Positions 8,351 through 47,225 of a DNA stretch of 64,000 nt are shown piece after piece. The first letter of the stretch is position 1; every line of letters starts with the position of its first letter. Source of the DNA: Macrostomum lignano (lineage: Eukaryota); contig NIVC01001104.1 of assembly GCA_002269645.1 (NCBI GenBank), forward strand, positions 248,001 to 312,000, in the 5' to 3' direction. Position numbers and translations under genes: made by a program. The notes under the pieces were generated by a model that saw only the letters and a list, made by a program, of their open reading frames with translations, searched no databases and was not told the origin of the DNA.

Positions 8351-9432
8351 ATGGCAAAGAAGTCATACGACCTGCTGTTCAAACTACTTCTGATTGGAGA
8401 CTCTGGTGTGGGCAAGACCTGCATTCTATTCAGCTATGTTGAGAACACTTTTCAGACGTCGTTCATTTCAACAATTGGAATTGATTTCAAGATAAAAACT
8501 ATCGAATTAGAGGGAAAGAAGATAAAACTTCAGGTGATTTTTAGCAGAATTTTTTGTGATTTCCTTTGCTAATTAGTTTTTTGGAATTTATTATGAAGCC
8601 TAATAAAGTAGTCAAACTTTGAAGCAGATTTTTTGAATTAAAAAATTGGCAGGCTTTTTGCTGGCGCCTTTGCTCTGATGCTGGTGCGCCTGGTTCTAAA
8701 GCCCCTGGTGCTAGAGCCCCTGGTGGTAAAGCCCCTGGTGGTAAAGCCCCTGGTGGTAAAGCCCCTGGTGGTAAAGCCCCTGGTGGTAAAGCCCATGGTT
8801 CTAAAGCCCCTGGTGCTAAAGCCCCTGGTGCTAAGCCCCTGGTGCTAAGCCCCTGGTGCTAAAGCCCCTGGTGCTAAAACACCTGGTGCTAAGCCCCTGG
8901 TGCTAAAGCCCCTGGTGCTAAAGTCCCTGGTACATTCTTTTGGTAAAAAAAAAAACAAATAAAAAACATCGCGTCCGTTTTGCGCCAGATCTGGGACACG
9001 GCTGGGCAGGAGAGATTTCACACCATCGTGTCAGCCTACTACCGCGGTGCAATGGGCATCATGCTAGTCTATGACGTGACCTCTCGGGCCAGCTTTGACA
9101 ACGTCGGCCGTTGGCTGGAGAACATCGAGAACTACGCCAGCGAATCTGTGGAGCGCGTGTTAGTTGGGAACAAATGCGACCTGAACGAGAAGCGGCAGGT
9201 CAGCGCACAGGAGGCAGAACGGCTGGCCAAATCGCGCGATATCCCTTTCTTCGAAACCTCGGCCAGAACAGGCGACGGAGTTGAGTCCGCCTTCCTGGCA
9301 CTCACTGAGATGGTGTTGCACAAGACTCCAGTTGGGCAGTTGAATTCGCCTCAGCACAATTCACCCTTGTCATTGAAGGACCGTGACGGAAGCTCCAGAC
9401 AGGGCGGGCTGTTGAAGGGCAAATGCTGCTGA
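8351..9432 (+). CDS. Rab10: Rab10-like (Rab8/10/13 group) small GTPase; exons 8351-8533 and 8989-9432
   Basis: [23 protein letters not shown] (G1), IGIDFKIKT, phase-0 intron CAG|GT...AG|ATC joining to [12 protein letters not shown] (G3), GNKCD (G4), ETSA (G5) and a C-terminal CC prenylation motif. Confidence 0.93.
8690..8930. repeat. 15-bp minisatellite (AAAGCCCCTGGTGS T-type) in the Rab intron
   Basis: About 15 units of aaagcccctggtggt/gct. Confidence 0.95.
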
Positions 9433-17649: not shown

Positions 17650-20600
17650 ATGTCCGACAGAAAGGCCGCCGATGTCAAACTGCTGCTGCTGCAGCCCGCC
17701 GCCGCGGCTTACTCTGAGGACATTGCTGATCTAATTCTGACTCTGTACACCAGGCCTGCCACCGGCCAGGAGATGCGCGTCTACATTGTGGGTGAGCACT
17801 GTAGGGCATTCAAGTAGCTGGAACTGGGAGATTGGGGAGAATTAGAAAAGGGAGAGCAAGAACTGGGAGATTGGGGATAATTGGAAAGGGGAGAGCGGGA
17901 ACTGGGAGATTGGGGAGAATCAGAAAGGGGAAAGCGGGAACTGGGAGATTGGGGAGAATTAGAAAGGGGAGAGCGGGAACTGGGAGATTGGGGAGAATTA
18001 GAAAGGGGAGAGTGGGAACTGGGAGATTGGGGAGAATTAGAAAAGGGAGAGCAAGAACTGGGAGATTGGGGATAATTGGAAAGGGGAGAGCGGGAACTGG
18101 GAGATTGGGGAGAATCAGAAAGGGGAAAGCGGGAACTGGGAGATTGGGGAGAATTAGAAAGGGGAGAGCGGGAACTGGGAGATTGGGGAGAATTAGAAAG
18201 GGGAGAGCGGCAGCTGGAAGATTGGGAAAAAGGGGAGGGCGGTCTGGCAGGAAAGTTGAAAGATAGGATTAATAAACAAATATTTTGAAAAATCTGAAAT
18301 ATTTAAAAACAGCCGACAAAGCAGAGTGAAATATAGATAAAATTCATTCAGGAATATAAACACATCAATACTATTTGATGTCAGTTGTAAAGAATTTGTG
18401 CAGAAGTTATCGAGAATTTGTTGTGCAGTACATTTCTCCGCCCGTCTTACTTCAAGCTATTTTGGGAACAAGTCGGTCCCAGCCCGAGTATTTAGCTAGC
18501 AACATCACGGATGCCGCTCTTATCAGATGTAGCGTACGCTGCTATGAGCGTACTGAATCCCGGAGGCCTGAAAATTCATGAACATCGTAAAACCGTCTGC
18601 GTATTTTTATTCCTTGATATGCTAACCGCACACTTGGCAGCCAACGATTCGCGTTAAATAAACCATGTCAGCGCTGGACTGGCCTTGGGTTCTAAAAATA
18701 GTCACACAGAAAAAACACCATCCCGACAGATCATATTTACTCGTACGAAATACGAGGGGTGTCCCAGAAGTAGTGTCACTTTTGCTTCCTTCCACAAGTA
18801 TTAATGCGTGTTTAAAAAATCATGTCTTTAAAGTTAGCGGCTTATTTTAGCTTTCATGCCACGAGAGTCCGATTTTTATAAGTGCTTCCTGCTGTAAGCA
18901 GCATGCATTTATTCGCATACCCTTGGCCATAGAAATGCACATCGCATAGTGCTTCTATGCTCACTCAGAAGAAAGCCACAAGTAGAGCTGATCAAGCACT
19001 GAGTTGCCAGACAGCAGCTGCAAGATTAGTTCCAGTCATGGACCCTAACATTCACTCTACAGAAGGGCGAAGTCTTGGTCAGAAATGCCCTGAAATTCAC
19101 GAAAACCTGACCCGCATTGACGGTGCCGACTCCCGATGCCATCAGTCAACGAACAGTTTACAGGTGGATCGAACAGTTCGAGGCTGGCCGGCAGTGTGTT
19201 GCCAACTTATCCAAAAGTTAGGGTCCATGACTGGAACAAATCCTGCAGCTGCTGTCTCGCAACTCTGTGCTTAATCAGCTCTACTTGTGGCTTTCTTCTG
19301 AGTGAGCATAGAAGCACCATGCGGTGTGTATTTCTATGGCCAAGGGTATGCGAATAAATGCATGCTGGTTTTTTTTATTAGAGGCAGGGGGTTGTGTGCA
19401 CCCTGGCGCACTTTAAGCGACATAGGCACACAACTGGCGAGAGGCATTGCTGCCCATTCCGCCGACTCCCCTGAGCAGGCATACACGCGCGCGGATACGT
19501 ACGCAGGCACACACTCACACAGGAGTGTACAGCGGCCCTAACTTTATATTATCGTTAGGCATGTACACTTCACTGCGCCTTGGGGGGTTGGCTCTCAACG
19601 CCGTTAATTACACGAGCAGAGCCAAGCCAAGATTCCAATTCAGCCCGAAATTAATATGAATGCACTTGGAATCGAGCCTGGGTCACTGGCACACCAGAGC
19701 CTGCGCTAGACTGCTGGGCTACGGCCCCCCTTATGCATGCTGCTTACAGCAGGAAGCACTTATAAAAATCGGACTCTCGTGGCATGAAAGCTAAAAAAAG
19801 CCGCTAACTTTTAAGGCATGATTTTTTAAACATACATTAATACTTGTGGAAGGAAGCAAAAGTGACACTACTTCTGGGACACCCCTCGTAGTATAGGTTG
19901 TTTCCATGGCAACTCATTGGGGTTTCCATGGAAACTTCTCTTTTAAAATTAAAAACACAATTAATTATCGGCTAAAAAGTCATCTCCATGGCAACTCCGT
20001 TGCGTACTTCCCTTCTCAGGATGCCTCGTGCTGACCCTCACGGCCTCCGTGCTGCCTCAGTACACCCTGCTGGCCGACCGCCTCTCCACCCTGCCCTCGT
20101 CAACCTCGCCATCGACCTCGCCGTCATCGCTCAGCCTCGCCAAGGCGGGATTCGTCCACCTGGGACCGGGCGACGGCAGCCTCGTCTGCTTCCACTGCTG
20201 CGTCCGCGTCTCCCCGACAGCGTCGACGACGGAAGAGCTGCCGCCGCCGTCGTCGTCGTCATCAAGAGACACTTTTGTTGATCGCTTCGACGACATCGAG
20301 CTGACCGACCGCTGCGGTCTGGGAGCAGCTGGCAGCGATCACGATGACGAACCACTCCGGCGGCACCGTCGGGCGAGTCCAAACTGCTACTACGCCCGGC
20401 TCTGCGCCCTGGCCCGCGCCGTCTCCAGGAGCGGCGCTGGCGCCGGCGGCCTCGGAATTCGCCGCCTCGCCGAACGGCTGGACGCCATCGGCGACGCTAA
20501 ACGCTACGCGCGGGCGTTGCGGAAACTGCGCGGCTGCCTACTTGGCGGCTGCGGCCTCAGCCTGGCCGCCAGCTTCGGCTACAGCCCGCCTCACCTCGCC

Positions 20601-20765
20601 GCTTGGTTGACGCGCTATTTTATGCGCAACAACGGCGCCTGTCCGACTCGAGCAGGGGATATCATTGCGCTGGCGCACGAATCCGAGGCGCAGAGTTTGC
20701 TAGCGCCCGGCCTGCTGGACATTCTAGACATTGTTGGCCTGCTGCAGCTGCCGGAGCTGCTTTGA
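17650..20765 (+). CDS. BIR-domain (IAP-like) protein; exons 17650-17791 and 20020-20765
   Basis: Exon 1 MSDRKAADV...VYIV-G ends at donor GTGAGC (phase 1) and joins in frame at ctcAG|GA TGC. The BIR signature is YTLLADRLSTL...LAKAGFVHLGPGDGSLVCFHC...DDEPLRRHRRASPNC, with all four C,C,H,C zinc ligands. Confidence 0.8.
17820..18225. repeat. 39-bp purine-rich intronic minisatellite
   Basis: Unit gaactgggagattggggagaattagaaaggggagagcgg, about 10 copies. Confidence 0.95.
18751..19890. mobile_element. Mariner-derived foldback element with ~299-bp inverted arms and a transposase N-terminal remnant
   Basis: TA-CGAGGGGTGTCCCAGAAGT ... ACTTCTGGGACACCCCTCG-TA termini. Arms are 18751-19049 and 19217-19890 (excluding the SINE). 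The spacer encodes EIHENLTRIDGAD / AISQRTVYRWIEQFEAGR, resembling the mariner HTH (frameshifted). Confidence 0.85.
19368..19732 (-). mobile_element. tRNA-derived SINE, full length (~365 bp)
   Basis: 10-bp TSD ATGCATGCTG (19358-19367, 19733-19742). The minus-strand head GGGGCCGTAGCCCAGCAGT...CCAGGCTCGATTCC has A-box and B-box-like motifs, and the tail is A-rich. Other copies occur at ~42880 and ~63780. Confidence 0.85.
19900..19995. promoter_or_regulatory. Cluster of three RFX X-box-like palindromes
   Basis: GTTTCCATGGCAAC (19900-19913), GTTTCCATGGAAAC (19922-19935) and ATCTCCATGGCAAC (19982-19995) resemble the X-box consensus GTNRCC-N-RGYAAC. Confidence 0.4.
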
Positions 20766-21770: not shown

Positions 21771-22199
21771 CGGACCCAGTGAGTCAAGGAACTGTTTGAA
21801 TAGCTCTCTCTGCCTCGTACGAACAGCGTATGAGGTGATTCTAATTTAGCCCGATACGAGCACCCTGGCAGAGAGCGTACGGTCGTGCCTGTACATATGT
21901 GTACACTCCAATGCAGATTATCTCTCTTAGGCGATCTAATGCGCCCATATTCTTTCAATATTATATTGCCGTACTAACTAGCAATTAGTGGCGCTTCCGC
22001 ATATTGTTGACGAACTCCCATCACTCCATGCCAACTAAGTTAATTTTCATTCATTCCAGTATAATAATATTTAGATGCCAAATTTTCATTAAAATGCATT
22101 GGACCATGCATGCAGTTGTAGTTATGTTTAAACATTGTCTTTATTGACTTACATATGCCTGCAATGCTGGGGATTCCGGAGCCAGAGTTTCAGCTGAAC

Positions 22200-24262
22200 T
22201 TGGTGCCATTCTGTAACTGGGTGCCATTCTCTAACTGGGCGTCATTCTCTAACTGGGTGCCATTCTGTAACTGGGCGTCATTCTCTAACTGGGCGTCATT
22301 CTCTAACTGGGCGCCATTCTTTAACTGGGTGCCATTCTGTAACTGAGTGCCATTCTCTAACTGGGCGCGATTCTCTAACTGGGCGCCATTCTCTAACTGG
22401 GCCCCATTCTCTAACTGGGCGCCATTCTCTAACTGGGCGCCATTCTCTAACTGGGCCCCATTCTCTAACTGGGCGCGATTCTCTAACTGGGCGCCATTCT
22501 TTAACTGGGTGCCATTCTGTAACTGAGTGCCATTCTCTAACTGGGCGCGATTCTCTAACTGGGCGCCATTCTCTAACTGGGCCCCATTCTCTAACTGGGC
22601 GCCATTCTCTAACTGGGCGCCATTCTCTAACTGGGTGCCATTCTGTAACTGAGTGCCATTCTCTAACTGGGCGCCATTCTCTAACTGGGCGCGATTCTCT
22701 AACTGGGCGCCATTCTTTAACTGGGTGCCATTCTGTAACTGGGCCCCATTCTCTAACTGGGCGCCATTCTCTAACTGGGTGCCATTCTCTAACTGGGTGC
22801 CATTCTGTAACTGAGTGCCATTCTCTAACTGGGCGCGATTCTCTAACTGGGCGCCATTCTCTAACTGGGCCCCATTCTCTAACTGGGCGCCATTCTCTAA
22901 CTGGGTGCCATTCTCTAACTGGGTGCCATTCTCTAACTGGGTGCCATTCTGTAACTGAGTGCCATTCTCTAACTGGGCGCGATTCTCTAACTGGGCGCCA
23001 TTCTCTAACTGGGCCCCATTCTCTAACTGGGCGCCATTCTCTAACTGGGCGCCATTCTCTAACTGGGTGCCATTCTGTAACTGAGTGCCATTCTCTAACT
23101 GGGCGCGATTCTCTAACTGGGCGCCATTATCTAACTGGGCGCCATTCTCTAACTGGGCGCCATTCTCTAACTGGGCGCCATCTCTAACCGGGTGCCATTC
23201 TGTAACTGAGTGCCATTCTCTAACTGGGCGCCATTCTCTAACTGGGCGCCATTCTCTAACTGGGCCCCATTCTCTAACTGGCTGCCATTCTCTGACCAGG
23301 CGCCATTCTCTGACTAAGCGCTATTATATGAATAGGCGCCATTCTCTGACTAGGCGCCATTCTCTGATTAGGCGCCATTCTCTGACTAGGCGCCATTCTC
23401 TAACTGGGTGCCATTCTCTAACTGGGTGCCATTCTCTAACTGTGTGCCATTATCTAACTGGGCGCCATTCTCTAACTGGGCCCCATTCTCTAACTGGGCG
23501 CCATTCTCTAACTGGGCGCCATTCTCTAACTGGGTGCCATTCTCTGACCAGGCGTCATTCTCTGACCAGGCGCCATTCTCTGACTGGGTGCCATTCTCTG
23601 ACTGGGTGCCATTCTCTGACAAGGCGTCATTCTCTGACCAGGCGCCATTCTCTGACTAAGCGTCATTCTCTAATTGGGCGCCATTCTCTAACTGGGCGCG
23701 ATTCTCTAACTGGGCGCCATTCTCTAACTGGGCGCCATTATCTAACTGGGTCCCATTCTCTAACTGGGCGCCATTCTCTAACTGGGCGCCATCTCTAACT
23801 GGGTGCCATTCTCTAACTGGGTGCCATTCTCTAACTGGGTGCCATTCTCTGACTAGGCGCCATTCTCTGACTAGGCGCTATTCTATGAATAGGCGCCATT
23901 CTCTGACTGTCCGCCATTCTCTGACTAGGCGCCATTCTCTAACTGGGTGCCATTCTCTGACTGTCCGCCATTCTCTGACTGTCCGCCATTCTCTGACTAG
24001 GCGCCATTCTCTAACTGGGTGCCATTCTCTGACTGTCCGCCATTCTCTGACTGTCCGCCATTCTCTGACTAGGCGCCATTCTCTAACTGGGTGCCATTCT
24101 CTGACTGTCCGCCATTCTCTGACTGTCCGCCATTCTCTGACTAGGCGCCATTCTCTAACTGGGTGCCATTCTCTGACTGTCCGCCATTCTCTGACTAGGC
24201 GTCATTCTCTGACTAGGCGCCATTCTATGACTAGGCGCCATTCTCTGACTAGGCGCCATTCT
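22200..24262. repeat. 18-bp minisatellite (CTGGGCGCCATTCTCTAA)n, ~2 kb
   Basis: More than 100 units; the variant subtype tctgactagg/tctgactgtcc dominates the right third. Confidence 0.98.
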
Positions 24263-24454
24263 GACTTAACCATGCGTAACGCTGTACCAAGGCTTGGAAT
24301 TGATCATTTAAAATTTTATTGAAACAGCCGCACTATCAAATACGAGCAAATGACATATCTTCTTAGCAGTTACAGCTCAGGATGAGTGACAGCTAGCAGT
24401 GACACGCGTAATTAATAGCGTGGGCGCCCAGAGCCCAGCCCTATCTAGGCTCTC

Positions 24455-27033: not shown

Positions 27034-29463
27034 TTGACTTGACTTAGCTGCAGGGCTGTCCCGGAGGGGACACAGCGGGAAGGCGCGGGCGCCCATTCCG
27101 CTAGTCCCTGAACGGCCGACGCGTCGCTATGGACGGAGGGTTGGCGCCGCCCAGGGAGGTCCCCCAGTGTCGCCAGCAGCTATGGTGCTCTCTGGAAAGG
27201 AGAGTTCAGCCCTGCGGGTGGCCCGAAGGTAGCGCATGAGCTGATTAAAGTTTTCGGGTTTGCACGCTTCAGTAATAGATGTGTGTGGCCCGAGGTAAGT
27301 GAGTCTGGCCCGCGTGAAGGCGGGACAGATGCTGACGAAATGCTCAGCGGTTTCGTCACCTGAGTTGCAGAAACTACAGGTGGCGTTGGTGGCGTTGCCC
27401 TGCAGGTACTGGTGCCTGGAGAAGCAGCCGTGACCAGAGAGGGTCATGGTGGCAGCCCGGATGTCTCTGCGCGAGAGGCGCAAGAGGAGCTTCCGGAGCT
27501 GGTGAGAGGGCTGAGGGACAGCGCCTCTGGATTGCCTGCAGTTCGTGCGGTTCGCCCAAGTCGAGCGGTGCTGAGTCCTGATCCACGCTTTGATGCGCGA
27601 GTCGATGACACAGCCAGGGATCGGGACAAGAGGTTCGGGGCCGAGAGAGGAGCCGGAGGCACCAACTTTTGCAAGGGTGTCAGCCAACTCATTTCCTCGG
27701 ATCCCCACATGCCCCGGAACCCACTTAAGGGTAATTTTGTTGGCGGAACCCAACACATTGAGGAGTTTGATACAGTCAAGGACTGTAGCAGAGTTGGTGC
27801 TGCAGCCACTGATGGCGTGCAAGGCAGCTTGGCTGTCCGAATGGAAAATGATGTTCTTACCAGTAACGCCAGTGGCGAGAAGCTCTGCAGTGCAGGAGCT
27901 GATGGCCAGAACTTCATTTTGGAAAACACTGGAGTTGACCCCAGTGTATTGAGCGTGGGTAGCGATGACCCTCCCGTTCAGAAAGATTCCAACACCAAAG
28001 CCGGTGTTGGCTGACTGCTTAGAACCGTCGGTGTAGCAATGAAGCTCACCAGGGTTCCAATGGTCATTGATGTTATCGCGCGAGTCGATAGCTACGGAGT
28101 AGCGCTGTCTCAGGTTGAGCGTTGAGGCAATGCCATCGGTGAAGACGCGATTGGCCTGACACTCGTTGAGAAAGTTGAGGCACAGATCGCTATGCGGGAC
28201 AAGGTTCCGCTTAGCAGGTGCTCTCATGTAAATGAATTTGACGCCGGCATCAATTAGACGCCGCGTCGTTCTAGCCGCCTCACCCCTGATGAAGAGGTCA
28301 AGAGGCGGAAGATTAAGAAAGGCCCCCATGCCAGCAAAGGGCGTGGACCTGGTGGCGTTGCAGATGAGCCTACACGCTCTGCCTTGGATCGTGTTGAGCA
28401 GGTCTGCATGGCTTTTGACCTGGGTAGCGCTAACCCAGACAACAGAGGCGTACGTAATGGCAGGTCTAACTACGGAAGTATAGATCCACCAAAGCCGCTT
28501 TGGGATAGACCCCAAGAAGTGCCAAGTGCTCGTCGGAGCTGGGCCAGGATGGCTGAGGCACGCTTAGCTTTTGCTTTCACGTGGAAGGACCAGTTGAGCC
28601 GGTGGTCAAGTGTGACCCCGAGACATCTGGTCTGGTGCGCGAAGGCAATATCTCTGCCGTAGAGCTGCAGAGGACGTATGTTCCAGCGTAGTCTGCTGGT
28701 AAACATAATGGCAACGGTTTTGGGCTCAGAGAGTTCCAAACCATTGTCATTGGCCCAGGATTCTGCTTTGCGGATAAAGCTCTGCATCAGATCCCTGAGC
28801 GTGCTGGGAGACGGTCCTGCCACAATGGCCGTGACGTCATCAGCATACCCGACTTTGAAGACGGGGTCAGGTCGGGAGTCACTCAGAAGAGCGTCCATGA
28901 CCAGGTTCCAGAGCGTCGGGGTGAGGACTCCGCCTTGGGGTCCACCCTTACAGACTCTGGTGGAGGCAGTTTGCCCAAGAAGTTGGGCAGTGACCGTACG
29001 GTTGGAGATCATGTACATGATCCACCGTATGAGGGTAGCATGAGCTTTGCGATTTTGAAGGGCCCTCTGAAACGCTTCAAAGATAACGTTGTCGAAGGCG
29101 CCAACAATGTCAAGAAAGAGAGCCAGGGCGTAACCGTCACCCAGTACCGCCCGTTCAATCTTTTCGACAATCGCATGCAGGGCGCTGTCAGTCGACCTCC
29201 CGGTACGGAAGGCGTGCTGATTATTGCTGAGGGGCATCGCTGTCAGCTCGCAGGAGAGCAGCCGCCAGAGAATAAGCCTCTCAGTGAGCTTAAGCATTGC
29301 TGACGTTAAGCTAATTGGCCGGAAGGCCTTGACGCTTTGGTAGTCACCCTTCCCAGGTTTGGGAATAAAGACTACTCGAGCTTCAGTCCAGCTTTTGGGA
29401 ACGTATCCCAGCTGGATAGAGGCCCGCATAAGATTGCGGGTGAGTCTCAGGAAGGTGAGTACG
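27034..29463 (-). mobile_element. 5'-truncated non-LTR retrotransposon (RT + RNase H + CCHC; LOA/Lian-like, I/R1 group)
   Basis: RT: FIPKPGK...FRPISLTS, QHAFR, FLDIVGAFD, GGPQGGVLTPTLW, YADD, RCLGVTLD. RNase H: YTDGS, SVFQNEVLAI, SDSQAAL, WVPGHVGIRGNELAD. Also CSFC...TAEHFVSIC and a (TCAAG)n 3' tail at 27034. A 1-nt deletion at ~28500-28505 splits ORF2. Confidence 0.92.
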
Positions 29464-30099
29464 CTGACAGGTGAGTACGCTTGTCACGTGATCTACGAGA
29501 GACTGACAGGTGAGTTCGCTGGTCACGTGATCTATGAGAGACTGACAGGCGAGTATGCGAGCCATACGGACAAGGGCACTGGCGCCAATTGAGCAGATTT
29601 GTGCGCATCGTACCAAACATTTGCCTCTTCTTTTGAACTTCTCAATTGGCAAAGAAGCGACTTGACTTCCTTGACTCAGCTGCGGGGGCTTCGGGCATCC
29701 GGATACAGCGGGGAGGCGTCAGCTGTGCGCTTAGAGCCCGGCCTTACAGGCTCTCAGTCACGCGTAGGGGCTTGACTATATTTTCTACTCCAGTAACCCC
29801 TTCGAAAAAAACCTAAGATATGAAAACTCGATCGAATGAAAGTACCTAAGAGTATGTAATTGCGCTATTATGCGCTAATCTCATTAATTATACTGTCGGT
29901 TGTGCAGCAGAGCGAGTGCACTGAAAAGTGCTTCTGTCATCCCAGCTGAAATCTCATAGCCTACTAAAGTAAAACAGGGGTCGAAAAACTCCGGCCCGCA
30001 AAGCCTCTCTATTCGGGCCTCGGGTCCTTTGAAACTTCACAACAGCAATCCGGCCCGCTCAAAGTTTGTGTCTCTTCTCAGCTCTCTCTCTCTCTCTCA

Positions 30100-34102: not shown

Positions 34103-34229
34103 TCCAAGCATATTTAAAAACAACTTAAAAAACCTTCAGATCTACCTGCATATGAAGGCCTTCAAATATTAATACTTCTTCCATAGACGCGAGAGAGTTA
34201 CATCCTGATACAAGCGATCTAATATACAG

Positions 34230-34931
34230 TGTTGGGCTGCGCCCTTCCAGTGTGTATGTACTCGTACTTTTGTTTTCAGTTTTCATGCCACCCCGCCCCG
34301 TCCCCCGTCTCGCGCCCGGGCCAGGGTTTGTGAGAGGCGTAAGTCTCAACCCTGGCCTAGCCCTTTGCACCCAGTCCCCGGCCCAATCTCTGTCCAATCT
34401 GGGTGCCCCCCCCCCTCCCTCGTTGCCCGCCTCACCCTGGGGCTGCTCGTATTGGCTGGCTGGCTGATAAGCCGGCTGGGCCCCAGGGTTTGGCTCGCCG
34501 TCTCCATTCTGCCCCACCCCTCCCCCTTTTTTGTGTATTATTTAAATGCTAGCCCTGAGCGGGCTGCGCTCCACGTTTGCTCTCTATTGGTGTCCGCTTC
34601 GTTCTTACTGTTTTTGCGTTCATCGGCGTACCTCTGCCTTCGCGTGCCAATAACTGCTTCGGGCCAATAAACGCTTCGTGATTAACTCGATATATCAAGA
34701 GGAGGTGAGCTCGAGCTTTCGTTCTTCTGGGTTGCCGCGTGGGGCCGGGATCTGCAGGGACCTGGGAACGGTGAACTCTCGCCGATCCCAGGGTGTTCGG
34801 CCAGGCGAACTCTCGCCGAACCGAGCGAGACAGGGTAGGAATAGCCGGGGTGAGGGCTGGGACAGGGGTGTCTCAGGCGGGGAGGGCCCGAACCTTGACC
34901 CGTCCAGCGGCCATTAGGCCGAGACACAACA
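34230..34931 (+). repeat. 5' LTR (702 bp)
   Basis: TGTTG..CAACA termini, TATA-like TATTTAAA at ~34538 and AATAAA at 34666-34671. Confidence 0.97.
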
Positions 34932-34933
34932 AG

Positions 34934-34951
34934 TGGTGCCGTGACCAGGAT
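34934..34951 (+). other. Primer-binding site, tRNA-His type
   Basis: TGGTGCCGTGACCAGGAT lies 2 nt after the LTR and is complementary to the 3' end of eukaryotic tRNA-His (..GUCACGGCACCA). Confidence 0.85.
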
Positions 34952-36036: not shown

Positions 36037-39000
36037 ATCCGGGTGCATCGGGGGCCGCGGCCTTGTCCCAGAGTGTGCTGAGTCGGCAGGGACTGGGCTA
36101 TGTGGATGCACAGTTTAGGTTTGGGCCCCCGATTGCATGTCTGCTTGACAGCGGGGCCACCGTGTCGTTGTTAAGCAACCGTTTCCTGAAGTCTAAAAAG
36201 CCGACATTGACTTATTGCCGAATTTGCCGAATTTTTCCGTTTTCGCTGCCAATGGGGAACCGATTGCTGTACATGGAATGGTGACGATGAAGTTTTCTGT
36301 TGGGGACACCGAGTTTTTGCACGAGTTCGCTGTGGTCGAGGAACTGGCTGTGGCATGTATTCTGGGCACTGACTTTTTCGTGAGACACGGGATGGCGATT
36401 GACTTTGCTAGGAATTGCTTGCAGACTGCATCCTGTGTGTATCCGTTTCGCTTATCAGCAGATAAGCCGCGTCTTTGCCGTCTGGTGCTGAGTCAGCCTG
36501 AGCAGTTCAATGCAGGTCAAGAGAAGGTGGTGCACGTCAGGTTGCAGAGAAGGGTTCCCTCTGGGGTTCAGTTCCTAGGCATTGTGGAGTCTGAGAGGAG
36601 AGTGAGTAACGAGCAGATGGTGGCCAGATCGGTACAGATGCCTGACGGGGACGGTCGCTTGGCTGTCAGGGTGTTGAACACGTCAGGATGCAGTCTGTCA
36701 TTAAGGAAGGGAAGCCGAATTGGTTGGTTCTCCCCAGTGGCGGCCCAGCAGCCAGCTGGGTGGCAGGTGAACTCGGTGGAGAGTGTCCGAGACGACTGGA
36801 ACCCCCTCAGCGATGTCAAGGAGTGGGGAGGATGTGGCCTGACGGGCGATGAGAAGCACGAGTTTGAGCGCCTGATGGCTCGGAATCGTGATGTCTTTGC
36901 CAGGGATAGCTCGGAGTTGGGACAGTCACACTTGATGGCGCATGAGATTGACACCGGCAACGCCAAGCCAGTAAGTCAGCCCGCGCGTAGGATTCCACCG
37001 CGCTGGAAGGAGGAAATTGATAAGCAGGTTGATGAGTTGTTGCAGCAGGATCGCATCTATCCCTGCTACTCTCCGTGGGCGAGCCCGATCGTGCCGGTTA
37101 AAAAGGCCGACGGTAGCTTGAGGTTGTGTCTAGACTATCGGCGCCTTAACGAGGTCACAGTGCCAGATCCTTACCCACCGCCGCGGATGGACGAGACGCT
37201 TGATGCGCTAGGAGGGAACTGTGTTTTCTCGACGATGGATCTGGCCTCCGGCTATCATCAGTGCCCGATTGAGCCGAAGGACCAGTTGAAAACGGCGTTC
37301 GTGGTACCCAACAGGGGTCAGTTCGCCTGGAAGTGCATGAGTTTTGGCTTGCGCAATGCTCCCGCTACGTTCGCCAGGCTAATGTCTATGGCCCTGTCTG
37401 AGGTTAACTGGAAGGAGTGCCTGGTGTACTTTGACGATATAGTCGTGTTCGCCAAGTCGGTGGGTCAGCATCTCGAGCGATTGAAGCATGTTTTCCAGTG
37501 CCTGAGGGATGCCAATGTCAAGCTGAAGCCCGCCAAGTGTGTGTTCCTCGCAGAGCGGGTGAAGTTTCTGGGCCACATCGTCTCTCAGGAGGGGATCGCA
37601 ACGGACCCGAGCAAGTGCGAGGAGATCCAGAATTGGCCGAGGCCATGTAGCGCCAAGAAGGTGCAGGCATTCCTGGGTACGTGCGCCTACTATCAGTCAT
37701 TTATCCCGCAGTTTTCGGAGATTGCAGCGCCGCTGTATAGGTTAACCGCAGACGGAGTGAAGTTTGAGTGGGGTAGTGAAGAGGAGAGTTCGTTTTGCAG
37801 GCTGAAAGACGCTTTGTGTTCACCGAATGTGATGGCATTCCCGGATTTTTCGCCTGGTGCCGGGGAGTTCATCCTCGACACGGACGCCAGTTCGCGCGTC
37901 GGGCTGGGAGCCGTCCTGTCACAGCGTCAAGCAGATGGCCGTGAGAAGGTGATCGCTTACGGGTCTAGGATGATTCATGCGGCGGAGAAAAATTATTGCA
38001 CCACCAGGTTAGAGTTGCTTGCCGTCGTGCACTTCGTCAAAAAGTATAGGTACTATTTGTTAGGTAGAAAGTTCACTGTTCGTTCAGACCACAAAGCTTT
38101 GCAGTGGCTAGCCAGTCTGAAGGACGTAGAGGGTCAGTGCGCAAGGTGGCTTGAGTCGCTCCAGAACTTCGACTTTGAGATCATTCACAGGCCAGGCAAG
38201 GAGCACGGCAACGCTGATTCGCTGTCTCGCAAGTACCGAAAACACGCTGGCCATGAGAGCTGCCCTAGCTGCCAGTTTAGCGAGAATGTGCCAGTAGTGA
38301 ACGCGGTGTTTGGCAGTGGGCTGTCTTCGAAGGAAGTCCAGCAGGCGCAAGTGGCCGAGAAGAAGCTTGCAGCTGTCCGCTCCTATGCCCTGGACCCGGG
38401 TTCGAACCCCAGTGCGCCTAGAGTGATGTCGTGGGAGGAGCGTGTGCTGTGGGCACAACGGCAGCTGATAAGAGTAGAGTCTGATCTGTTGTATTTTCAG
38501 AGTCCCGGGAGTGGGTGCCAGAAAAAGATCTTGCTGCCGCCGGCTTTGCTGCCGAAAGTGCTCAGTGAGCTTCATGATGGGGTTGCAGGAGGGCACCTTG
38601 GGGTTAGGAAGACACAAGAGAAAGTGAAGGCGAGATACTGGTGGCCGGGGCTGAGTCGTTCCGTGGAAGAGTATTGCCGGAGCTGTGTCCACTGTGCGAA
38701 GGCGAAGCCTGGGCGCAGCAACCGGGCGCCTTTGCAGCCAATCTGCTCGGAAGGAGCTTTCCAGAGGATCATGAGTGACATTGTCGGGCCGTTGCCCAAG
38801 TCCAGAGGTGGCAATCGATTCGTGCTGACAATCCAGGATTCTTTTACTAAGTGGCCGGTGGCGGTGCCCTTGTCGAATCAGCGAGCCCCGACGGTGGCGC
38901 GAGCGATTTTTGATCACTGGATTGCGCACTTTGGTTGTCCTGAATTTCTAGTCACCGATAAGGGCACCAATTTTGAGTCGGCTTTGATGAAGCAGTTGTG

Positions 39001-39919
39001 TCGGTTGCTTGCCGTTAAGAAATGCAGAACGTCCTCCTATCACCCGATGGCTGATGGTCAGGCTGAGAGTTTCAATAAGACGTTGAAGTCAATGATCAAG
39101 TGCAGGATGAGTGAGTCGGTGGGCGAAGGAGACTGGGAGGATCTGATCCACCCGTCTCTCATGGCGTACCGTAGCAGCGTTCACAGAGGCACGGGGTACA
39201 CCCCGTACTACATGCTGTACGCCAGGGAGATGCGGCTTCCAGTGGACATTGGAACCTTGCCTGAGTCCATTCCTGCCAGTGCTCCGGCGTATGTTCAGTC
39301 ATTAGGTAATAGTCTGGCTGAGGCTCATTCGCAGGTGCGGACCAACCTGCAGCAGTACCAGAGGAAACAGAAAGTGCTGTACGACTCAAGGGTGCGAGGC
39401 CCGGCCATAGAAGTTGGGGATGCCGTCCTAGAATACTCGCCTGCGCTGCAGGCAGGGGAGGCAGCCAAGTTCCATTGCAATTGGAAGGGGCCGGCGAAGG
39501 TGTTAGAGAAGATATCCGATTTGAATTACCGGGTAAAGCACGCCAATAGGGGAAAGAGCAAAATAGTGCATTATAATAATTTGCGAAAAGTACCCGAGCG
39601 GCCTGAGCAGTTCAGGTTGATGAATAGGCATACGGCAGTGCAGCGCCGGTCGGCGCATCCGCCTGAGCCGGCAGGGTGCAGACAGGAGCCCGCGGGGCCG
39701 GCGACTAAAGAGCCGGAACTTGAGGAGGAGGAGGAGTTTTACTCGTATGTGGTGCCACCAGTTGCCGTTGGGCCTCGGCATGGGATAGTAGGGCCGGGAA
39801 CGCCAGTTGCGCCATGCGCACCGGTGGCTCCAGCGGCGCCAGCCGTGTCTCCGCGCAGACTGCGCGAGCGTCGGGGTGTGCCCCCAGCGTATTACGGGAA
39901 TCCGGTATTGTATCGTTAA
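35982..39919 (+). CDS. pol: Pol (aspartic protease, RT, RNase H, integrase) in the -1 frame to gag; extra 1-nt deletion at ~36195-36199
   Basis: PR LLDSGATVSLL; RT WASPIVPVKK, LCLDYRRLN, YFDD; RH LDTDAS, SDHKAL, NADSLSR; IN H-X6-H..C-X2-C, SDIVGP / TDKGTNF / AESFNKTL and WKGP. Confidence 0.95.
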
Positions 39920-40256
39920 TTCGCAGTGGGCTCACAAGGCGGTCGTCATAAATTGATTTTTAATATGCACTTGTATTAATGCCTCCACGCTGTTGTCTAT
40001 GGTAGAAAGCCTAAAATAACCTAAAATGAAAAAAATGATACAACCCCAAAGCACAAAAAAATCATAAAATGGAACGCATGGAAAGCACGTAAAAAACATT
40101 AAATGTATTAAAATTACAAAGTATGCTAGGCAAGAAGCGTTCTCAATCGTATTGTAAAATAAACATGTCATAGGATGGGTCAGGTCAGGGTCACAGTTGC
40201 TAGTCCGCAAGGCATAGGTAGTGATTGGGTTTAAATGTCATCATTGCAGGAGGACC

Positions 40257-41933
40257 ATGTCGTCGCCAACGACACCGACTGATTTGTATGGCGTGTTAGG
40301 CGTGGGTCGGACTGCTAACTCTGCGGAGATTGAGGCAGCGTGTAGTCGTCTGTACTCAAAGCGGCCCCGCGTCTGTCCTGCCGAGGTAGAGTCTCCGGAG
40401 TCTCAGCGAGACGTGATGGCGATGTGCGTTTTATCTGACCCAGTGTTTCGGGAAGTATACGATCGGGTTGGAGAGGCAGCGTGTCAAGGGGTGTTAAAGT
40501 ACGCCTACTTTTTCAATCCTCCCCCTGACGTTGAGTTGCCCGAGCAGGTCAGGTTAGCTTTGGCTAGTCTTAAGGGAAGCGCCGCAGGGGAAGCTCCAGT
40601 TCACGCGGAGATCCCAGCCGAGTTATTGGCTCCGGCTGCGCTTGCTGAGTGTAGGCGGCTGAGGGGTGCGCTGCTGGCGCGGTTGAGGGCTGGGGATAGT
40701 GAAGGAGCTTGCCTGGTGGTTCAGGAGGTGGCGAGGTTTCTTGATGGGGCTGGTGTGAGTGTGCCTGAGCAGTTGTCTAGATTCTTAGCAGTGTCTGTGT
40801 CGTTTCTGTGCAATCAGTATGGGCGGAAGAGAGGTTCTGGTGGTGGCTCCGGGAGGTGTCGGAGGGTCCCGCCTTCGGTGCTGCAGGCGGCGTTTGAGTG
40901 CGTGTTGTTGGCTGTGCGGGGTTTTGAGCTGTGTGAGTTGGGGGGTCCCTTGTTGGGGAGGCTCCGGGGTCTGTCTCTCTTAGTGGATCCTGGCCTCGCG
41001 CGGCGCCCGGAGGAGGGGAGTGACGGGCCGCACCTTTCGCAGACTCCGCTGACGGCCCAGCGCGACTTGGCGACCGAAGAGTTAACGGGTGTCGACCCCG
41101 AGCAAGTACGACCGGCCGACACGGTCCAGGAGGTCTCCCCCCGTGACGACCCGAATCAGCGCAAGGTCAGCTCGGCTAAGCGTCTCGTCGATGCAAAGGC
41201 ATACCTAACGAGGCTGGGCCGGTCGATTCAGCCCGAGGACCTTCGTGGCGTGCGTCGATGTCTAGCGGCTGTAAACTCGCCGTACTGCCTGCGTCTAGAA
41301 TGTCCCGTTGTCCGACCACTGCTGCAAGACCGACGGATCGTGTTCGCCCTGGGCCTGAAGGCCAGTGCTGCACCGTGGTGGCCATCGCTGCGAGACGATG
41401 TACGACGATTTCTAGCGGGTAGCTGGCCGCGTGTCGTGGCGGTCGGCGAAGTCGAGCTCAATTGGGACGCTGAGAGGTCGCAGCGCCAGGACCAGTTAAC
41501 GGCGGCGATGGAGCAGTTCTTGCTTGCCAAGGAGTTCGGCCTGCCGGTTTTGTTCCGAGTTGAAGGCGGCGAACCTGCCTGGGCGGTCGCCCTAGGATTC
41601 CTCCGGCAGCCGGAGTTTCAAGCGATGAGCGTCATGCTGGCCGAGGACCTGGACTTGCCGGAGGCCGTCGAGGCCGCGCTGGTGAGCAAGTGCCACGGGG
41701 TCTTCTTCGAGGTGTCCGCTCGGTGCCGAGGATCCCCGCGAGCGGTCCAACGGGCTAAGCGTCTCCCGCGGCAGCGCCTGCTAGTGACATCGGCCGCACC
41801 GTTTGGTGGAGACCCCAAGGACCCGACAGCCATCAAGTTCGTGCCGGAAGCCCTAGCGGACAGTGAATGTGATCGCAGGTACTGGACTCGACTGTTTGCG
41901 ACCAACTGTAGTAGATTTTTTGGCCGATTGTAG
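40257..41933 (+). CDS. Retrotransposon ORF3, 558 aa: HPD-less J-domain-like N-terminus plus degenerate TatD-like barrel
   Basis: J-like: DLYGVLGV..ANSAEIEAA..AMCVLSDPVFREVYDRVGE. TatD-like motif series: LVDAKAYL, VFALGLKA, VVAVGEVELNW, QFLLAKEFGLPVLF, LPRQRLLVTSAAP, NCSRFF. Confidence 0.75.
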   Translation: MSSPTTPTDLYGVLGVGRTANSAEIEAACSRLYSKRPRVCPAEVESPESQRDVMAMCVLSDPVFREVYDRVGEAACQGVLKYAYFFNPPPDVELPEQVRLALASLKGSAAGEAPVHAEIPAELLAPAALAECRRLRGALLARLRAGDSEGACLVVQEVARFLDGAGVSVPEQLSRFLAVSVSFLCNQYGRKRGSGGGSGRCRRVPPSVLQAAFECVLLAVRGFELCELGGPLLGRLRGLSLLVDPGLARRPEEGSDGPHLSQTPLTAQRDLATEELTGVDPEQVRPADTVQEVSPRDDPNQRKVSSAKRLVDAKAYLTRLGRSIQPEDLRGVRRCLAAVNSPYCLRLECPVVRPLLQDRRIVFALGLKASAAPWWPSLRDDVRRFLAGSWPRVVAVGEVELNWDAERSQRQDQLTAAMEQFLLAKEFGLPVLFRVEGGEPAWAVALGFLRQPEFQAMSVMLAEDLDLPEAVEAALVSKCHGVFFEVSARCRGSPRAVQRAKRLPRQRLLVTSAAPFGGDPKDPTAIKFVPEALADSECDRRYWTRLFATNCSRFFGRL

Positions 41934-42160: not shown

Positions 42161-42172
42161 GGAGGGGGAGGA
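42161..42172 (+). other. Polypurine tract
   Basis: GGAGGGGGAGGA immediately precedes the 3' LTR. Confidence 0.9.
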
Positions 42173-42872
42173 TGTTGGGCTGCGCCCTTCCAGTGTGTAT
42201 GTACTCGTACTTTTGTTTTCAGTTTTCATGCCACCCCGCCCCGTCCCCCGTCTCGCGCCCGGGCCAGGGTTTGTGAGAGGCGTAAGTCTCAACCCTGGCC
42301 TAGCCCTTTGCACCCAGCCCCGGCCCAATCTCTGTCCAATCTGGGTGCCCCCCCCCTCCCTCGTTGCCCGCCTCACCCTGGGGCTGCTCGTATTGGCTGG
42401 CTGGCTGATAAGCCGGCTGGGCCCCAGGGTTTGGCTCGCCGTCTCCATTCTGCCCCACCCCTCCCCCTTTTTTGTGTATTATTTAAATGCTAGCCCTGAG
42501 CGGGCTGCGCTCCACGTTTGCTCTCTATTGGTGTCCGCTTCGTTCTTACTGTTTTTGCGTTCATCGGCGTACCTCTGCCTTCGCGTGCCAATAACTGCTT
42601 CGGGCCAATAAACGCTTCGTGATTAACTCGATATATCAAGAGGAGGTGAGCTCGAGCTTTCGTTCTTCTGGGTTGCCGCGTGGGGCCGGGATCTGCAGGG
42701 ACCTGGGAACGGTGAACTCTCGCCGATCCCAGGGTGTTCGGCCAGGCGAACTCTCGCCGAACCGAGCGAGACAGGGTAGGAATAGCCGGGGTGAGGGCTG
42801 GGACAGGGGTGTCTCAGGCGGGGAGGGCCCGAACCTTGACCCGTCCAGCGGCCATTAGGCCGAGACACAACA
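42173..42872 (+). repeat. 3' LTR (700 bp)
   Basis: Differs from the 5' LTR only by a few single-base indels (for example cagtcccc vs cagcccc, and C/T-run lengths). Confidence 0.97.
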
Positions 42873-42879
42873 ACAGCGA

Positions 42880-43722: not shown

Positions 43723-46700
43723 TCAGACTGTGCCGGCGTTCACGCTGACGGGACTCTCCGACATGGAGTGCGGCGGAGTCGACGGCAGGAACTGCCGGCC
43801 CGGGCACATCCGGCGGAAGGCCTCGTCGGCGCAGCGCACACTGCCGTCGAAGTCAACGTCGGAGTCAGCGCCAGACACCAGGTGGACATTGTCGGGCAGG
43901 CCCGGCTGTCGGTGACGAATCGACTCGCTGTAGTCCTTCACGGTGAAGAAGGCGGACAGCAGCGCGTGCGGCCGGCTGGTGTCGTCCTCGTCGGTGGCGA
44001 ACAGCGCCGAGGTCAGGCCGAGGAACGCCTGCCGAGGACTCGAGCTGGCGTCCCCTGGCGACAGCGGCAGGGTGATGTGCACCACCCAGGTGTCTGGCGG
44101 GCAAGCCTTCGTAGTGGTCGGCAGTTCGATCACCCGAGCCAGATTTCGGTAGCCGTCGATTCTGTGAACGAAATGCGTGACGCAGGCGCCTCGGTTCGCT
44201 TCCGCATCGGTTGGTTCAACGATCTCCGCGCGCAACGGAGCATCCGTGACGAAGACAGCGCGGGCCACGTGGCGCACTTTGTGGGCCTCTAGCCAATGCG
44301 CCGGGGCGTAGCGCGCGTTCAAAACCAATTGACGGGCGCTGACTCGTTCGCGCGCCCCGCCGCTTAAAGTGACGCCGGTGACGCGGCCGTCCTCGATATT
44401 AACCGACTCGACTCCGCGCCGGAGCACGAAGGTGGCGCCCCAGACGGCAGAGTGACGGCAGAAAACCTCGGCGATTTCGTTGCTACCGTAGTGGACCCAG
44501 GCCAGGGGCCCAGCCGCGACTCGGACTCGTCCGGCAGCGAGCTCAGGTAGCGCTGGATTCGACGAACACCTTCGAATGCGTCTTCGTCGGGCTGGCACAT
44601 AGCGTAGGACTCGATAACTAGAGACTTGGCCAGCGGACTGGTGACGCCAGACAGTTCGAGCAGCTCGTCCAGCGTCTTCGGCAACTGGCGCTCGTCAGCC
44701 GCGGCACCGGGAAAGAGCGGCAGCTGCTGGTCCGGCAGCGAGGCCGGCCAGCTTCTGCACTGCTGCAAAAAGCTGGCCAAGGAGATTCTCTCGCTCTCGG
44801 ACAGTCTCGGCCAGGACTCGATGCCGGCAGGTTCTACTGGTAGGCTGATTAACCGGCCGCTCTGCCTCATGTGCAGGCACCGGCCGACTCGTTGAATGTC
44901 CGAATAGAAGCCCAGGCCGGTGCGGTGCAGCAGGTTCATGAGGCCGCTGCGGGCGAACGTCAGCCTAGGCGAGATGTCCAAGTTGAAGCGGCGGTTCTGA
45001 TTCACCAGCTGCTGCAGACTGACTCGAGACGGCCGGTCGCCTCGAATGTCCGGACGAGCCTGCTCCTGAGGGAGTCCGATCGGTTTACAAACCGGATGTA
45101 AAATTATCTTTGTCCGCTGAATATGCGAGAAAGTCTCTGACATGCATTTTAAACAACACTGGAACTCAATTCATTTGTGTCAGAACTCAGTCAGAAACAA
45201 ATATTTTGGCGCCCCGGACACTTCTTTCAAAGCTCACTGACACTTGCATCATGGCCACAGCTGACACTCACAATACAAAACAGTTTAAAAATCTTTGACT
45301 TTATTCTTTGCCAGAAGTCCCAAAACAGTAAACTGCCTGACTATCCAAGCTAGAGGGGTCGCCATCACAAGCTCGAAAAATCACATCGTCGAAAACTGAT
45401 TTAGTAGCCACCATCACAAGCTCGAAAAGTCATAAGCTCGAAAAATCACATCGTCGAAAAGTTTAGCAAACATCATCACAAGCTCGAAAAGACACAAGCT
45501 CTAAGCCTAACCCCAAGGCACTAACCCTAAGGCACCAGTACCCTAGCCTAACCCTGAACCATAACCCTAAGGCACTAACCCCGACCCCAACCCTAAACTT
45601 AACCCTAAACCCTAACCCTAAGGCACAAGGTCTAACCCTAACCCTATTCGAGCTTGTGATGGTGGTTGCTAACCTTTTCGACGATATGATTTTTCGAGCT
45701 TATGACTTTTCGAGCTTGTGATGGTAGATGCTTTTCGACGATGTGATTTTTCGAGCTTGTGATGGTAGATGCTTTTCGACGATGTGATTTTTCGAGCTTG
45801 TGATGGGCCCCCCATTTCAACCCCCCCCCCTCTCAGAGTCGTAGCTTCCGCCTTTGAAAAAGCATTGGGCTGAAGCTTTCTATCTTTATGAATAGTATGT
45901 AAAAAGCCAGTTGGCGTCACACACGTTGAACTTGTAAAAGCCAAGGGTCGAAATATTTTTTTGTATCTCGAGGGGCTGATAAGGAATCTAGCTCATGACC
46001 GCGGGCCAGGTGAGATATAGGAAAAAAAGAACAGGGAATTGAGGAGAGAAAAGAGATCAGGAAAGAGGAGATAAGGAGAGATGAAATGAAATGACATATA
46101 GCAGAGAAAGGAAAAGGAGAGAAGAGAGCTGAGAAGAGACACAAACCTCGAGCGGCCCGGATGCTATTGTGAAGTTTCAAAGGACCCGAAGGCCTGAGTT
46201 TGCGGACCCCTGGATTTAAACCCGGATGTAAACAACTGAAGTTTGTCCTGTCCCGGGTGTGAGCAACAAAATTTGTTTAGCTATAGGATGTAATTTTTTT
46301 CCTTCTTTTTTATAAAAATAGAAGGTACAAAAAATGTATCTCGTAGTAGGCTAACAAACTGTTTCTTTCAGCTAACAACAAGGACACAATAGAACACCTT
46401 TGAAGTGGCATGATATCATGAAATTTCAGAATATATACACGTAAACAGATAACCAAGCATTGAACAAACACACAGGTGAGCAAATTTTGATGATAGTGAC
46501 GAGTTAGAACAGGGGTCGGCCCTCAGAGAGAGAACAGAACATATGCAGCCCTCAGAAGCCTCTCTATTCCGGCCCTCGCGTCCTTTGAAACTTTACAATG
46601 GCAATGGCAAATCTCTATCAAGGTTTGTCTCTTCTCAGCTCTCTTGCTTCCTCTCTCCTCTCTCCGATCTCCTCTCTCCCCTCTCTCATCTTCTCTCATC

Positions 46701-47225
46701 TCCCCTCTCTCCCTTCTCCTTTTTACTGGCCTGCAGCCATGAGCTGGATTTCTCTATCTGATCCAAATTGCTACTGTTAGAAATTCAAATTGCTACTAAT
46801 AGTACAGTTTCGCGGTTTCTAAGTTAAAGCGTGAAACTTGCCGAAAAACTCACCCGTTGCAGCAGATTCTCCCTATTGACCTCCATTTCCTCCTGCAGCC
46901 GCGGCGCCCAGAACCAGTCCCTGTTGGCCACGCTGGCATCGGCCGTTGGCAGTCGAACTGTGGACACGGCGCCCGTCCTGTCGGATGCGGTGGTCACTGG
47001 CGCAGGCTGCTGCGGCTCCTCGGGCGCCGGCCTCGACAGCCACAGGACGAATTCAGTGAGAGATTTTGTTGCCCAAACGTCACCATAGTAACCGTTGGCG
47101 TCCAGATGAAGCACGCTGCTGCGAGCCCTGCCGAGAGCGGATGATAGCATAGCCTCCGTGATGCCGGTGCCCACCACGATGACATCGTAAGAGTCCAACA
47201 GCCGGTCCATCGAGGGCCTAAGCAT
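43723..47225 (-). CDS. CHM: Rab escort protein (REP/CHM-like, GDI superfamily); exons 47225-46854 and 45116-43723 with a 1-nt frameshift at ~44530
   Basis: YDVIVVGTGITEAMLSSALGRARSSVLHLDANGYYG, RRFNLDISPRL, YGSNEIAEVFCRHSAVWGATFVL and FRRMCPGRQFLP. The phase-0 GT-AG intron is consistent. The insert after GYYG favours REP over GDI. Confidence 0.85.
45353..45813. mobile_element. Foldback/MITE-like element with subterminal repeats and a telomere-like (CCCTAA) core
   Basis: Inverted arms built from CCATCACAAGCTCGAAAAATCACATCGTCGAAAA (left) and its reverse complement (right); degenerate ccctaa repeats at ~45505-45645. Confidence 0.7.
45942..46212 (-). mobile_element. hAT(Charlie)-like MITE; partial same-family copy at ~46510-46770 (+)
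   Basis: Termini CAGGGGTCCGCAAACT / CAAGGGTCGAAA; the internal gtcctttgaaacttcacaa..gtttgtgtctcttctcagctctc is shared with the 24665, 26591 and 29976 copies. No clear TSD. Confidence 0.65.

Follow-up and report, generated by a model that had tools for sequence, protein, structure and literature searches.

A young Ty3/Gypsy element carrying a third open reading frame

The window, meaning the whole 64,000-nucleotide stretch of Macrostomum lignano DNA analysed here, contains a complete Ty3/Gypsy-type element in which paired LTRs, primer-binding site, polypurine tract and target-site duplication are all present (Table 1). Pfam searches recover gag followed by the PR-RT-RH-INT order, with a frameshift near 36194 in the protease region of this copy's pol that was absent from the original prediction; open pol frames in other copies of the family span 1338-1341 aa. 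The primer-binding site is one that we take to be tRNA-His-like. The two LTRs are 99.7% identical, with 0 substitutions and 2 gaps, and a 4-bp target duplication (ACAG) flanks the element. The element is young, as had been predicted, and the intact 558-aa sense frame described between the pol stop and the polypurine tract is confirmed at full length. We refer to this frame as ORF3, to the window's Gypsy family as lineage A and to related M. lignano lineages by further letters.

Table 1. Features of the window's ORF3-bearing Gypsy element (window positions).
Feature	Position	Strand	Remark
5' target-site duplication ACAG	34226..34229		
5' LTR (TG...CA)	34230..34931	+	without canonical heat-shock element
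Primer-binding site	34934..34951	+	18-mer core also in lineages B, C, G
gag, 326 aa	35056..36036	+	zinc knuckles
pol (PR-RT-RH-INT)	36037..39919	+	start approximate; stop 39919
Predicted 3' splice acceptor (YAG)	40240..40249	+	7 nt 5' of ORF3 ATG
ORF3, 558 aa	40257..41933	+	
J-domain and conserved PP-x-G helical extension	40281..40583	+	
RPR in place of HPD	40362-40370	+	inside J-domain
H domain, 5-helix bundle	40632..40991	+	common to all ORF3 lineages
Mildly acidic linker	40992..41180	+	low model confidence; without the SIM-like motif seen at this point in B, C
TatD-fold barrel	41181..41930	+	Glu of GE near 41448 is the only ligand kept
Polypurine tract	42161..42172	+	
3' LTR	42173..42872	+	
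3' target-site duplication ACAG	42873..42876		

ORF3 occupies the position of env, and an env-bearing errantivirus-type element was considered. This candidate was rejected, as ORF3 has neither signal-peptide or transmembrane hydropathy nor a fusion-protein fold. In agreement with the original prediction, no 19-residue window of the protein exceeds a mean hydropathy of 1.49, and its folds are J, helical bundle and TatD.

Other features of the window include a host gene of the Rab escort protein/GDI family at 43726-47225 on the minus strand (Pfam GDI and RAE1_2_domI_C), the end of which lies ~0.9 kb from the 3' LTR. A second retroelement remnant at 27130-29483 (minus strand) encodes RT plus an RNase H of cellular type (PF00075) and is probably non-LTR. 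Exon-like frames encode a Ras-family GTPase (8947-9429, plus strand) and a BIR-domain protein (19965-20762, plus strand), and an array of an 18-nt unit, with ~110 copies, occupies about 22050-24300.

The TatD half of ORF3 returned 39 matches when used as a genome query. Inspection of 19 lineage A loci reveals full-length ORF3 in 10, with 1-12 indel bases in the other 9, and all 11 copies taken with wide flanks are Gypsy elements.

ORF3 combines a J-domain, a helical bundle and a TatD-fold barrel

The AlphaFold model of the window's ORF3 has a mean pLDDT of 62.7. Both domains that the original prediction had recognized by eye hold up in profile and structure searches. At the N-terminus, residues 9-69 match Pfam DnaJ at E 9e-5 and 22.9 bits, just below the cut-off of 27.8, and sister-family copies score 48-65 bits, above it. 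Sequence comparison with the PDB places J-domains first and TatDs as weak matches, and Foldseek recovers a J fold from the window model at rank 32 (a DNAJB13 chain). RPR replaces HPD, as had been read from the window, and does so in 19/19 lineage A copies, where basic helix II is also altered; HPD and basic helix II form the Hsp70-binding face of the J-domain (PMC11720896).

The C-terminal barrel matches TatD at E 8e-6 and 25.9 bits, just below the Pfam cut-off of 27 that sister-family barrels exceed (32-37 bits). The best TatD match in Foldseek has E 9e-6, and the top 15 among the matches listed are all TatD-type. Alignment with bacterial TatDs bears out the ligand losses listed in the original prediction and leaves the GE glutamate as the only one of six metal ligands kept; a further His (HC/HS motif) and the Glu of ETD are lost besides. 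Most ligands are also gone from the barrels of lineages B and C, which keep this Glu and the first His, and the two-metal ligand set of TatD enzymes (HxH or GxN, Glu, His, His, Asp) is found in none of A, B or C. A DAHAF motif in B and C suggests an HxH-class origin of the barrel, which also resembles the TATDN2 type and may derive from it. The closest TatD matches are bacterial, at about 28-33% identity, and rank above partial host TATDN1/3-like exons. With 37 K/R against 29 D/E the window barrel is net basic, whereas the two bacterial TatDs compared are acidic. The barrel thus shares fold and motif order with TatD nucleases (TATDN1/2/3, YcfH, YjjV; PMC10085689, PMC10711561) and differs from them in its ligand depletion and in being fused behind two other domains within a retroelement. 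Changing the Glu equivalent to that of ETD abolishes the activity of TATDN2 and E. coli TatD (PMC10711561). Since this residue is gone together with five other ligands, the window barrel is probably inactive as a nuclease.

A third, conserved domain had been overlooked. Residues 126-245 align with the helical domain of the other ORF3 lineages and are modelled as five helices (pLDDT 88.9); we call this the H domain. An H-domain profile run against 1.84 billion proteins returned 9 matches, namely one unrelated repeat protein and 8 ORF3-type proteins (2 M. lignano gene models and 6 Logan/JGI records). No match was found in the ESM Atlas or Pfam; the best PDB sequence match (E 0.035) was to designed proteins, and Foldseek gave no match at E<=0.001. 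The best fold comparison (Z 8.7, rmsd 2.9, 81 aligned) is at background level for helical bundles. These matchless searches of ESM Atlas, Pfam, PDB and folds do not amount to a new fold.

The whole of ORF3, compared with 5.8 billion proteins, had no homologue among 8000 scored candidates, and the 'longer' TatD search yielded one match, a chimeric M. lignano gene model containing this ORF3. No match came from a metagenome scan with the outside homologue P0012 or from a viral scan for the context of the outside homologues; a second metagenome scan brought up 80 generic J-domain loci, of which 0/80 had an H or RT/INT match. In public databases, ORF3 proteins go by no other names than 'hypothetical' or 'J domain-containing' and are treated as host models. 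A host DnaJ protein encoded in the genome matches an M. lignano record exactly.

ORF3, an old accessory gene in a single Gypsy clade

Lineages B and C carry ORF3s about 38-42% identical to that of the window, with RTs 65-69% identical. Wherever flanking sequence survives, their copies are found in Gypsy elements, with C471 and C513 (both B) lacking an adjoining co-oriented pol, and none of the B or C copies fetched is unbroken and full length. The J half of lineage B, used as a genome query, returned 148 matches, many of them in same-score blocks. Among these loci are another five Gypsy lineages, each in several copies (D, E, F, G, K), with RTs 55-58% identical to the window and LTR pairs of 98-99.8% identity. 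Behind pol, each encodes an ORF3 of 283-344 aa with an HPD J-domain, an acidic linker and a C-terminal H domain. A J-domain, an acidic linker and an H domain are the architecture common to all ORF3 lineages, and TatD, absent from these five of the seven deep lineages, is confined to A/B/C. Every copy checked that had sufficient flank lies in a Gypsy element or beside element remnants.

Both HPD and basic helix II are intact in B and C and in the five lineages D, E, F, G and K. Counting B/C as one, HPD is kept in each of the six deep lineages other than A, which alone has lost it; it is also intact in the 4 outside proteins with a J-domain. In a J-domain tree, 14 element-type J-domains fall on one side and 8 host J-proteins on the other (SH-aLRT 91, not starred). 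The window's J-domain is placed next to B/C on a branch of length 2.74, against a median of 0.42. Judged from this tree, HPD was lost late, on the very long branch that leads to the window's family. A chromodomain is present in the linker of lineage E and in the outside protein P0013 (Pfam 48-49 bits); read by eye against what we take to be the HP1 positions, that of lineage E has 2/3 cage aromatics.

The RT-RNase H tree of 26 rows places 21 rows, including all ORF3 lineages, in one branch (99/99), with A, N, B and C grouped together inside it (99/97); a quick integrase tree gives both branches too. Behind the integrase of 5 outgroup elements no J, H or TatD match was found. ORF3 is a clade-wide accessory gene, and an old one. 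With midpoint rooting as its only basis, the simplest order of events would be a single capture of J and H, followed by gain of TatD in A/B/C, gain of a chromodomain in E and loss of HPD in A. The ORF3 clade uses three different primer-binding sites, presumably His-, Lys- and Asn-like. Together with PMC12801592, these types suggest a probable place in the Gmr1/Osvaldo cluster of M. lignano Ty3/Mdg4 families. In one lineage-E element (L132, G000:C255:251650-257850), several long ORFs interrupt the sequence after the integrase; by eye, these look like a Polinton/adintovirus-type DNA polymerase region.

In two young sister lineages, ORF3 has gone entirely or for the most part. Lineage N, which is sister to A, has an RT 82% identical to that of A, a 1323-aa pol frame and LTRs 98.9% identical over 443 nt, and its post-pol region, shared by three more copies, gives no significant ORF3 match (best E 0.058). 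A B/C-type lineage with LTRs 99.6-99.9% alike keeps an intact pol and lacks J, H and part of TatD. Because both combine intact pol and near-identical LTRs with loss of all or most of ORF3, ORF3 is an accessory gene that is not needed in cis.

Some details of these two lineages may be recorded separately. The ~1.3 kb post-pol region of lineage N (L122, G000:C23; L135-L137) holds, in the ORF3 slot, a GC-rich, Met-poor frame of 207-247 codons, with short, non-significant strings reminiscent of TatD motifs and of the H-domain end. The ORF3-deleted lineage (L044/L046/L048; C2475, C222, C150) groups with C in RT-RNase H and with B in integrase; it is possibly a recombinant, or off-frame residues in the B row may distort its placement.

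ORF3 is under purifying selection

dN/dS was derived from Nei-Gojobori counts on natural stretches with a codon filter that favours alignable columns, and dS is near saturation in between-lineage (deep) pairs; on this scale, ORF3 ranges overall from 0.07 to 0.34. Comparison of the window's ORF3 with two subfamilies gives 0.32 and 0.27 (Fisher p 5e-5 and 5e-6), where pol gives 0.08 and 0.11. Between B and C the values are 0.08 for J, 0.07 for H and 0.12-0.13 for TatD. Lineage F yields 0.08 (J) and 0.18 (H), K 0.20, D 0.18, E 0.22 and G 0.34, the last not counted as lower than that of its own pol (0.47).

Distinct changes in the window's family were also subjected to a permutation test that keeps substitution types (5000 draws). 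Synonymous changes account for 46 of 87, against 27.1 expected, a number reached in 0/5000 draws. By domain, the excess is seen for J (9/15 synonymous, P 0.006), H (13/20, P 0.0008) and the linker (P 0.016); for TatD alone, 11/24 are synonymous versus 7.9 expected, which is not significant (P 0.12). Judged by these substitution patterns, ORF3 is under purifying selection, the HPD-less family included.

The view of ORF3 as a selected accessory or counter-defence protein is therefore upheld as to selection; its counter-defence part stays a proposal. Frames are kept across lineages, which is not the pattern of a one-off passenger capture. A neutral passenger, captured once and open merely through the family's youth, would account for the indels in 9/19 copies, the broken B and C copies and the loss of ORF3 from two lineages. 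It would not account for a synonymous excess in every lineage comparison or for frames kept at RT identities of only 55-58%; the dN/dS values already largely refute it, and we regard it as extremely improbable.

Clues to expression and to the linker

All lineages checked have a YAG within 0-16 nt 5' of the ORF3 start, and in 4/6 lineages its distance from the ATG is 0-1 nt, versus a background of 7% (P 4e-4); in lineages B/C it overlaps the J frame without an ATG at that point. This placement suggests a spliced message, and ORF3 may, like env, be expressed from a sub-genomic RNA produced by splicing. In four runs presumed to be RNA, contigs extend over gag, pol and ORF3 and contain no joint at the predicted acceptor, which leaves splicing neither supported nor discounted.

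A SIM-like motif, in which a hydrophobic run is followed by S/D/E, is present in the linkers of B, C, D, F, K, P0008, P0009 and P0010, with an ISDD form in four linker peptides; the pattern was defined after the motifs were seen, and its per-protein shuffle chance is 4-19%. The window's family, E, G, P0011, P0012 and P0013 lack it, and strings of this kind turn up in 3/8 pol frames. We take the motif to resemble viral and cellular SUMO-interacting motifs, and its hydrophobic-ISDD/E form may bind SUMO. The predicted complex of host SUMO with a lineage-K linker peptide scored 0.30 against a mark of 0.34, which speaks neither for nor against binding. As a separate observation, the genome contains at least 7 identical intronless SUMO-like gene matches (L139-L141; C1551, C1565, others), some as opposite-strand pairs on one contig.

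Some M. lignano Ty3/Mdg4 families, of the same species and superfamily as the ORF3 clade, exploit the heat-shock response via heat-shock elements (PMC12801592). In contrast, a canonical three-unit element is found in 0/12 LTRs of the ORF3 clade, and a heat-shock link as the reason for the J-domain was rejected.

Relation to known systems

Capture of non-env ORF3s has already been described (PMC5408684, PMC6338049). LTR retrotransposons of bdelloid rotifers carry ORF3s with a DEDDy exonuclease or GDSL esterase, and the M. lignano ORF3 resembles these in placing captured host-like domains in the env slot, with family-specific gain and absence (PMC5408684). It differs in that bdelloid catalytic residues are intact or nearly so (PMC5408684), whereas the M. 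lignano nuclease fold is ligand-depleted, and in that its core is a chaperone co-factor joined to an H domain without known relatives. Polyomavirus large and small T antigens use an HPD J-domain to bind Hsc70 and to stimulate it, and likewise represent a parasite-encoded HPD J-domain joined to other modules (PMC11720896). In contrast to ORF3, T antigen belongs to a DNA virus and has demonstrated Hsc70 activity; activity of ORF3 would be by analogy, the sequence link does not extend beyond the J-domain, and the window's family is without HPD. The chromodomain and the orchid AlkB m6A demethylase (PMC9289625) of Gypsy elements are comparable as host-derived, clade-fixed modules proposed to counter host control. 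The domains themselves differ, and the lineage E chromodomain sits inside ORF3 and not on the integrase.

None of the terms Hsp40, J-domain, chaperone, ORF3, TatD and chromodomain occurs in the available text of PMC12801592, with DnaJ present only in gene annotations of its accessible supplements. Term searches of the accessible text of DARTS (PMC8775202) and of an errantivirus survey (PMC13524379) returned no DnaJ. The original prediction had allowed that the architecture might already be described; no TatD- or DnaJ-bearing retrotransposon was found in the literature searched. ORF3 is a real and selected accessory gene family that is apparently undescribed.

Proposed function and alternatives

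We tentatively propose that ORF3 is an adaptor that recruits Hsp70 and directs it at silencing or chromatin machinery of the host, a reading that could well be correct while falling a little short of probable. The J-domain would call in host Hsp70, and the H domain together with a variable docking module would pick the target, for which such a complex of the host is the most likely candidate. This reading is favoured by the SIM-like and chromodomain docking modules and by the T antigen precedent for a J-domain joined to a docking module. On the strength of their intact HPD motifs, ORF3 proteins of the sister lineages may stimulate Hsp70. The mechanism is not directly applicable to the window protein, because HPD and SIM are both missing. 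Lineage A is derived, having lost both HPD and the SUMO-binding-like motifs. That J and H remain under selection suggests that some binding role persists, which would be Hsp70-independent and use the H domain with J as a scaffold; the basic, probably nuclease-dead barrel may add a further binding surface.

A different use for the same parts would be a private co-chaperone, in which the H domain binds Gag/Pol and J brings Hsp70 for RT folding or for particle assembly or opening. The common architecture, HPD conservation and selection fit this idea equally, and an H domain found only in ORF3-type proteins is what an element-specific partner would lead one to expect. Hepadnaviral RT requires Hsp40/Hsc70, which provides a parallel. 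Several points count against it: lineage N and the deleted B/C-type lineage do without ORF3 while keeping pol intact and LTRs near-identical, host nuclear partners are indicated by the chromodomain and the SIM-like motifs, and the window's family has spread recently without HPD. We consider the private co-chaperone unlikely, if a serious contender, and favour the adaptor over it.

The original prediction had proposed that an HPD-less J-domain and a dead barrel act as a chaperone decoy or as a shield for cDNA/RNP. RPR is fixed in 19/19 copies with J still under purifying selection, the barrel is basic, and TatD, with most ligands already gone, still shows conservation between B and C (dN/dS 0.12), all of which would suit such a role. 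A pure Hsp70 decoy is nevertheless unlikely, since the Hsp70-binding face (HPD, basic helix II) is the very part that changed. Two inactive domains kept as a decoy do not describe the gene at large, given that HPD is intact in six other deep lineages, TatD is restricted to one subclade and TatD alone is not significantly constrained in family A. In addition, the isolated nuclease domain of human TATDN2 did not bind R-loops (PMC10711561). We judge the decoy or shield improbable. Less probable still, and very unlikely in our estimate, is a barrel with residual nuclease activity on reverse-transcription intermediates, after the manner of the bdelloid DEDDy exonuclease ORF3. A, B and C all retain the Glu common to the two metals, B/C additionally the first His, and human TATDN1 retains much activity after a single change at Asp222, His149, His174 or Glu220 (PMC10085689). 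In family A, however, 5/6 ligands and the ETD Glu are lost jointly, an equivalent Glu change being lethal to activity as noted above, and 5/7 deep lineages lack TatD.

A more specific form of the adaptor reading would make ORF3 a SUMO- or chromatin-targeted J-protein and the first known transposon-borne Hsp70 co-chaperone, turning Hsp70 against SUMO-dependent silencing complexes. Its docking module (SIM, chromodomain or dead TatD barrel) would be swapped on a new helical domain, with the window's family having become chaperone-independent. We hold this fuller version to be doubtful at present.

Implications

Some M. lignano gene models annotated 'J domain-containing protein' are element-borne, and the ORF3 clade defines a new helical domain. 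Animal transposon-encoded counter-defence proteins are rarely known. The clade offers natural variants in which HPD is intact or lost, a SIM, chromodomain or TatD is added, or ORF3 is deleted. Together with transgenics and RNAi in M. lignano, these variants make the steering of host chaperones by an animal retrotransposon directly testable.
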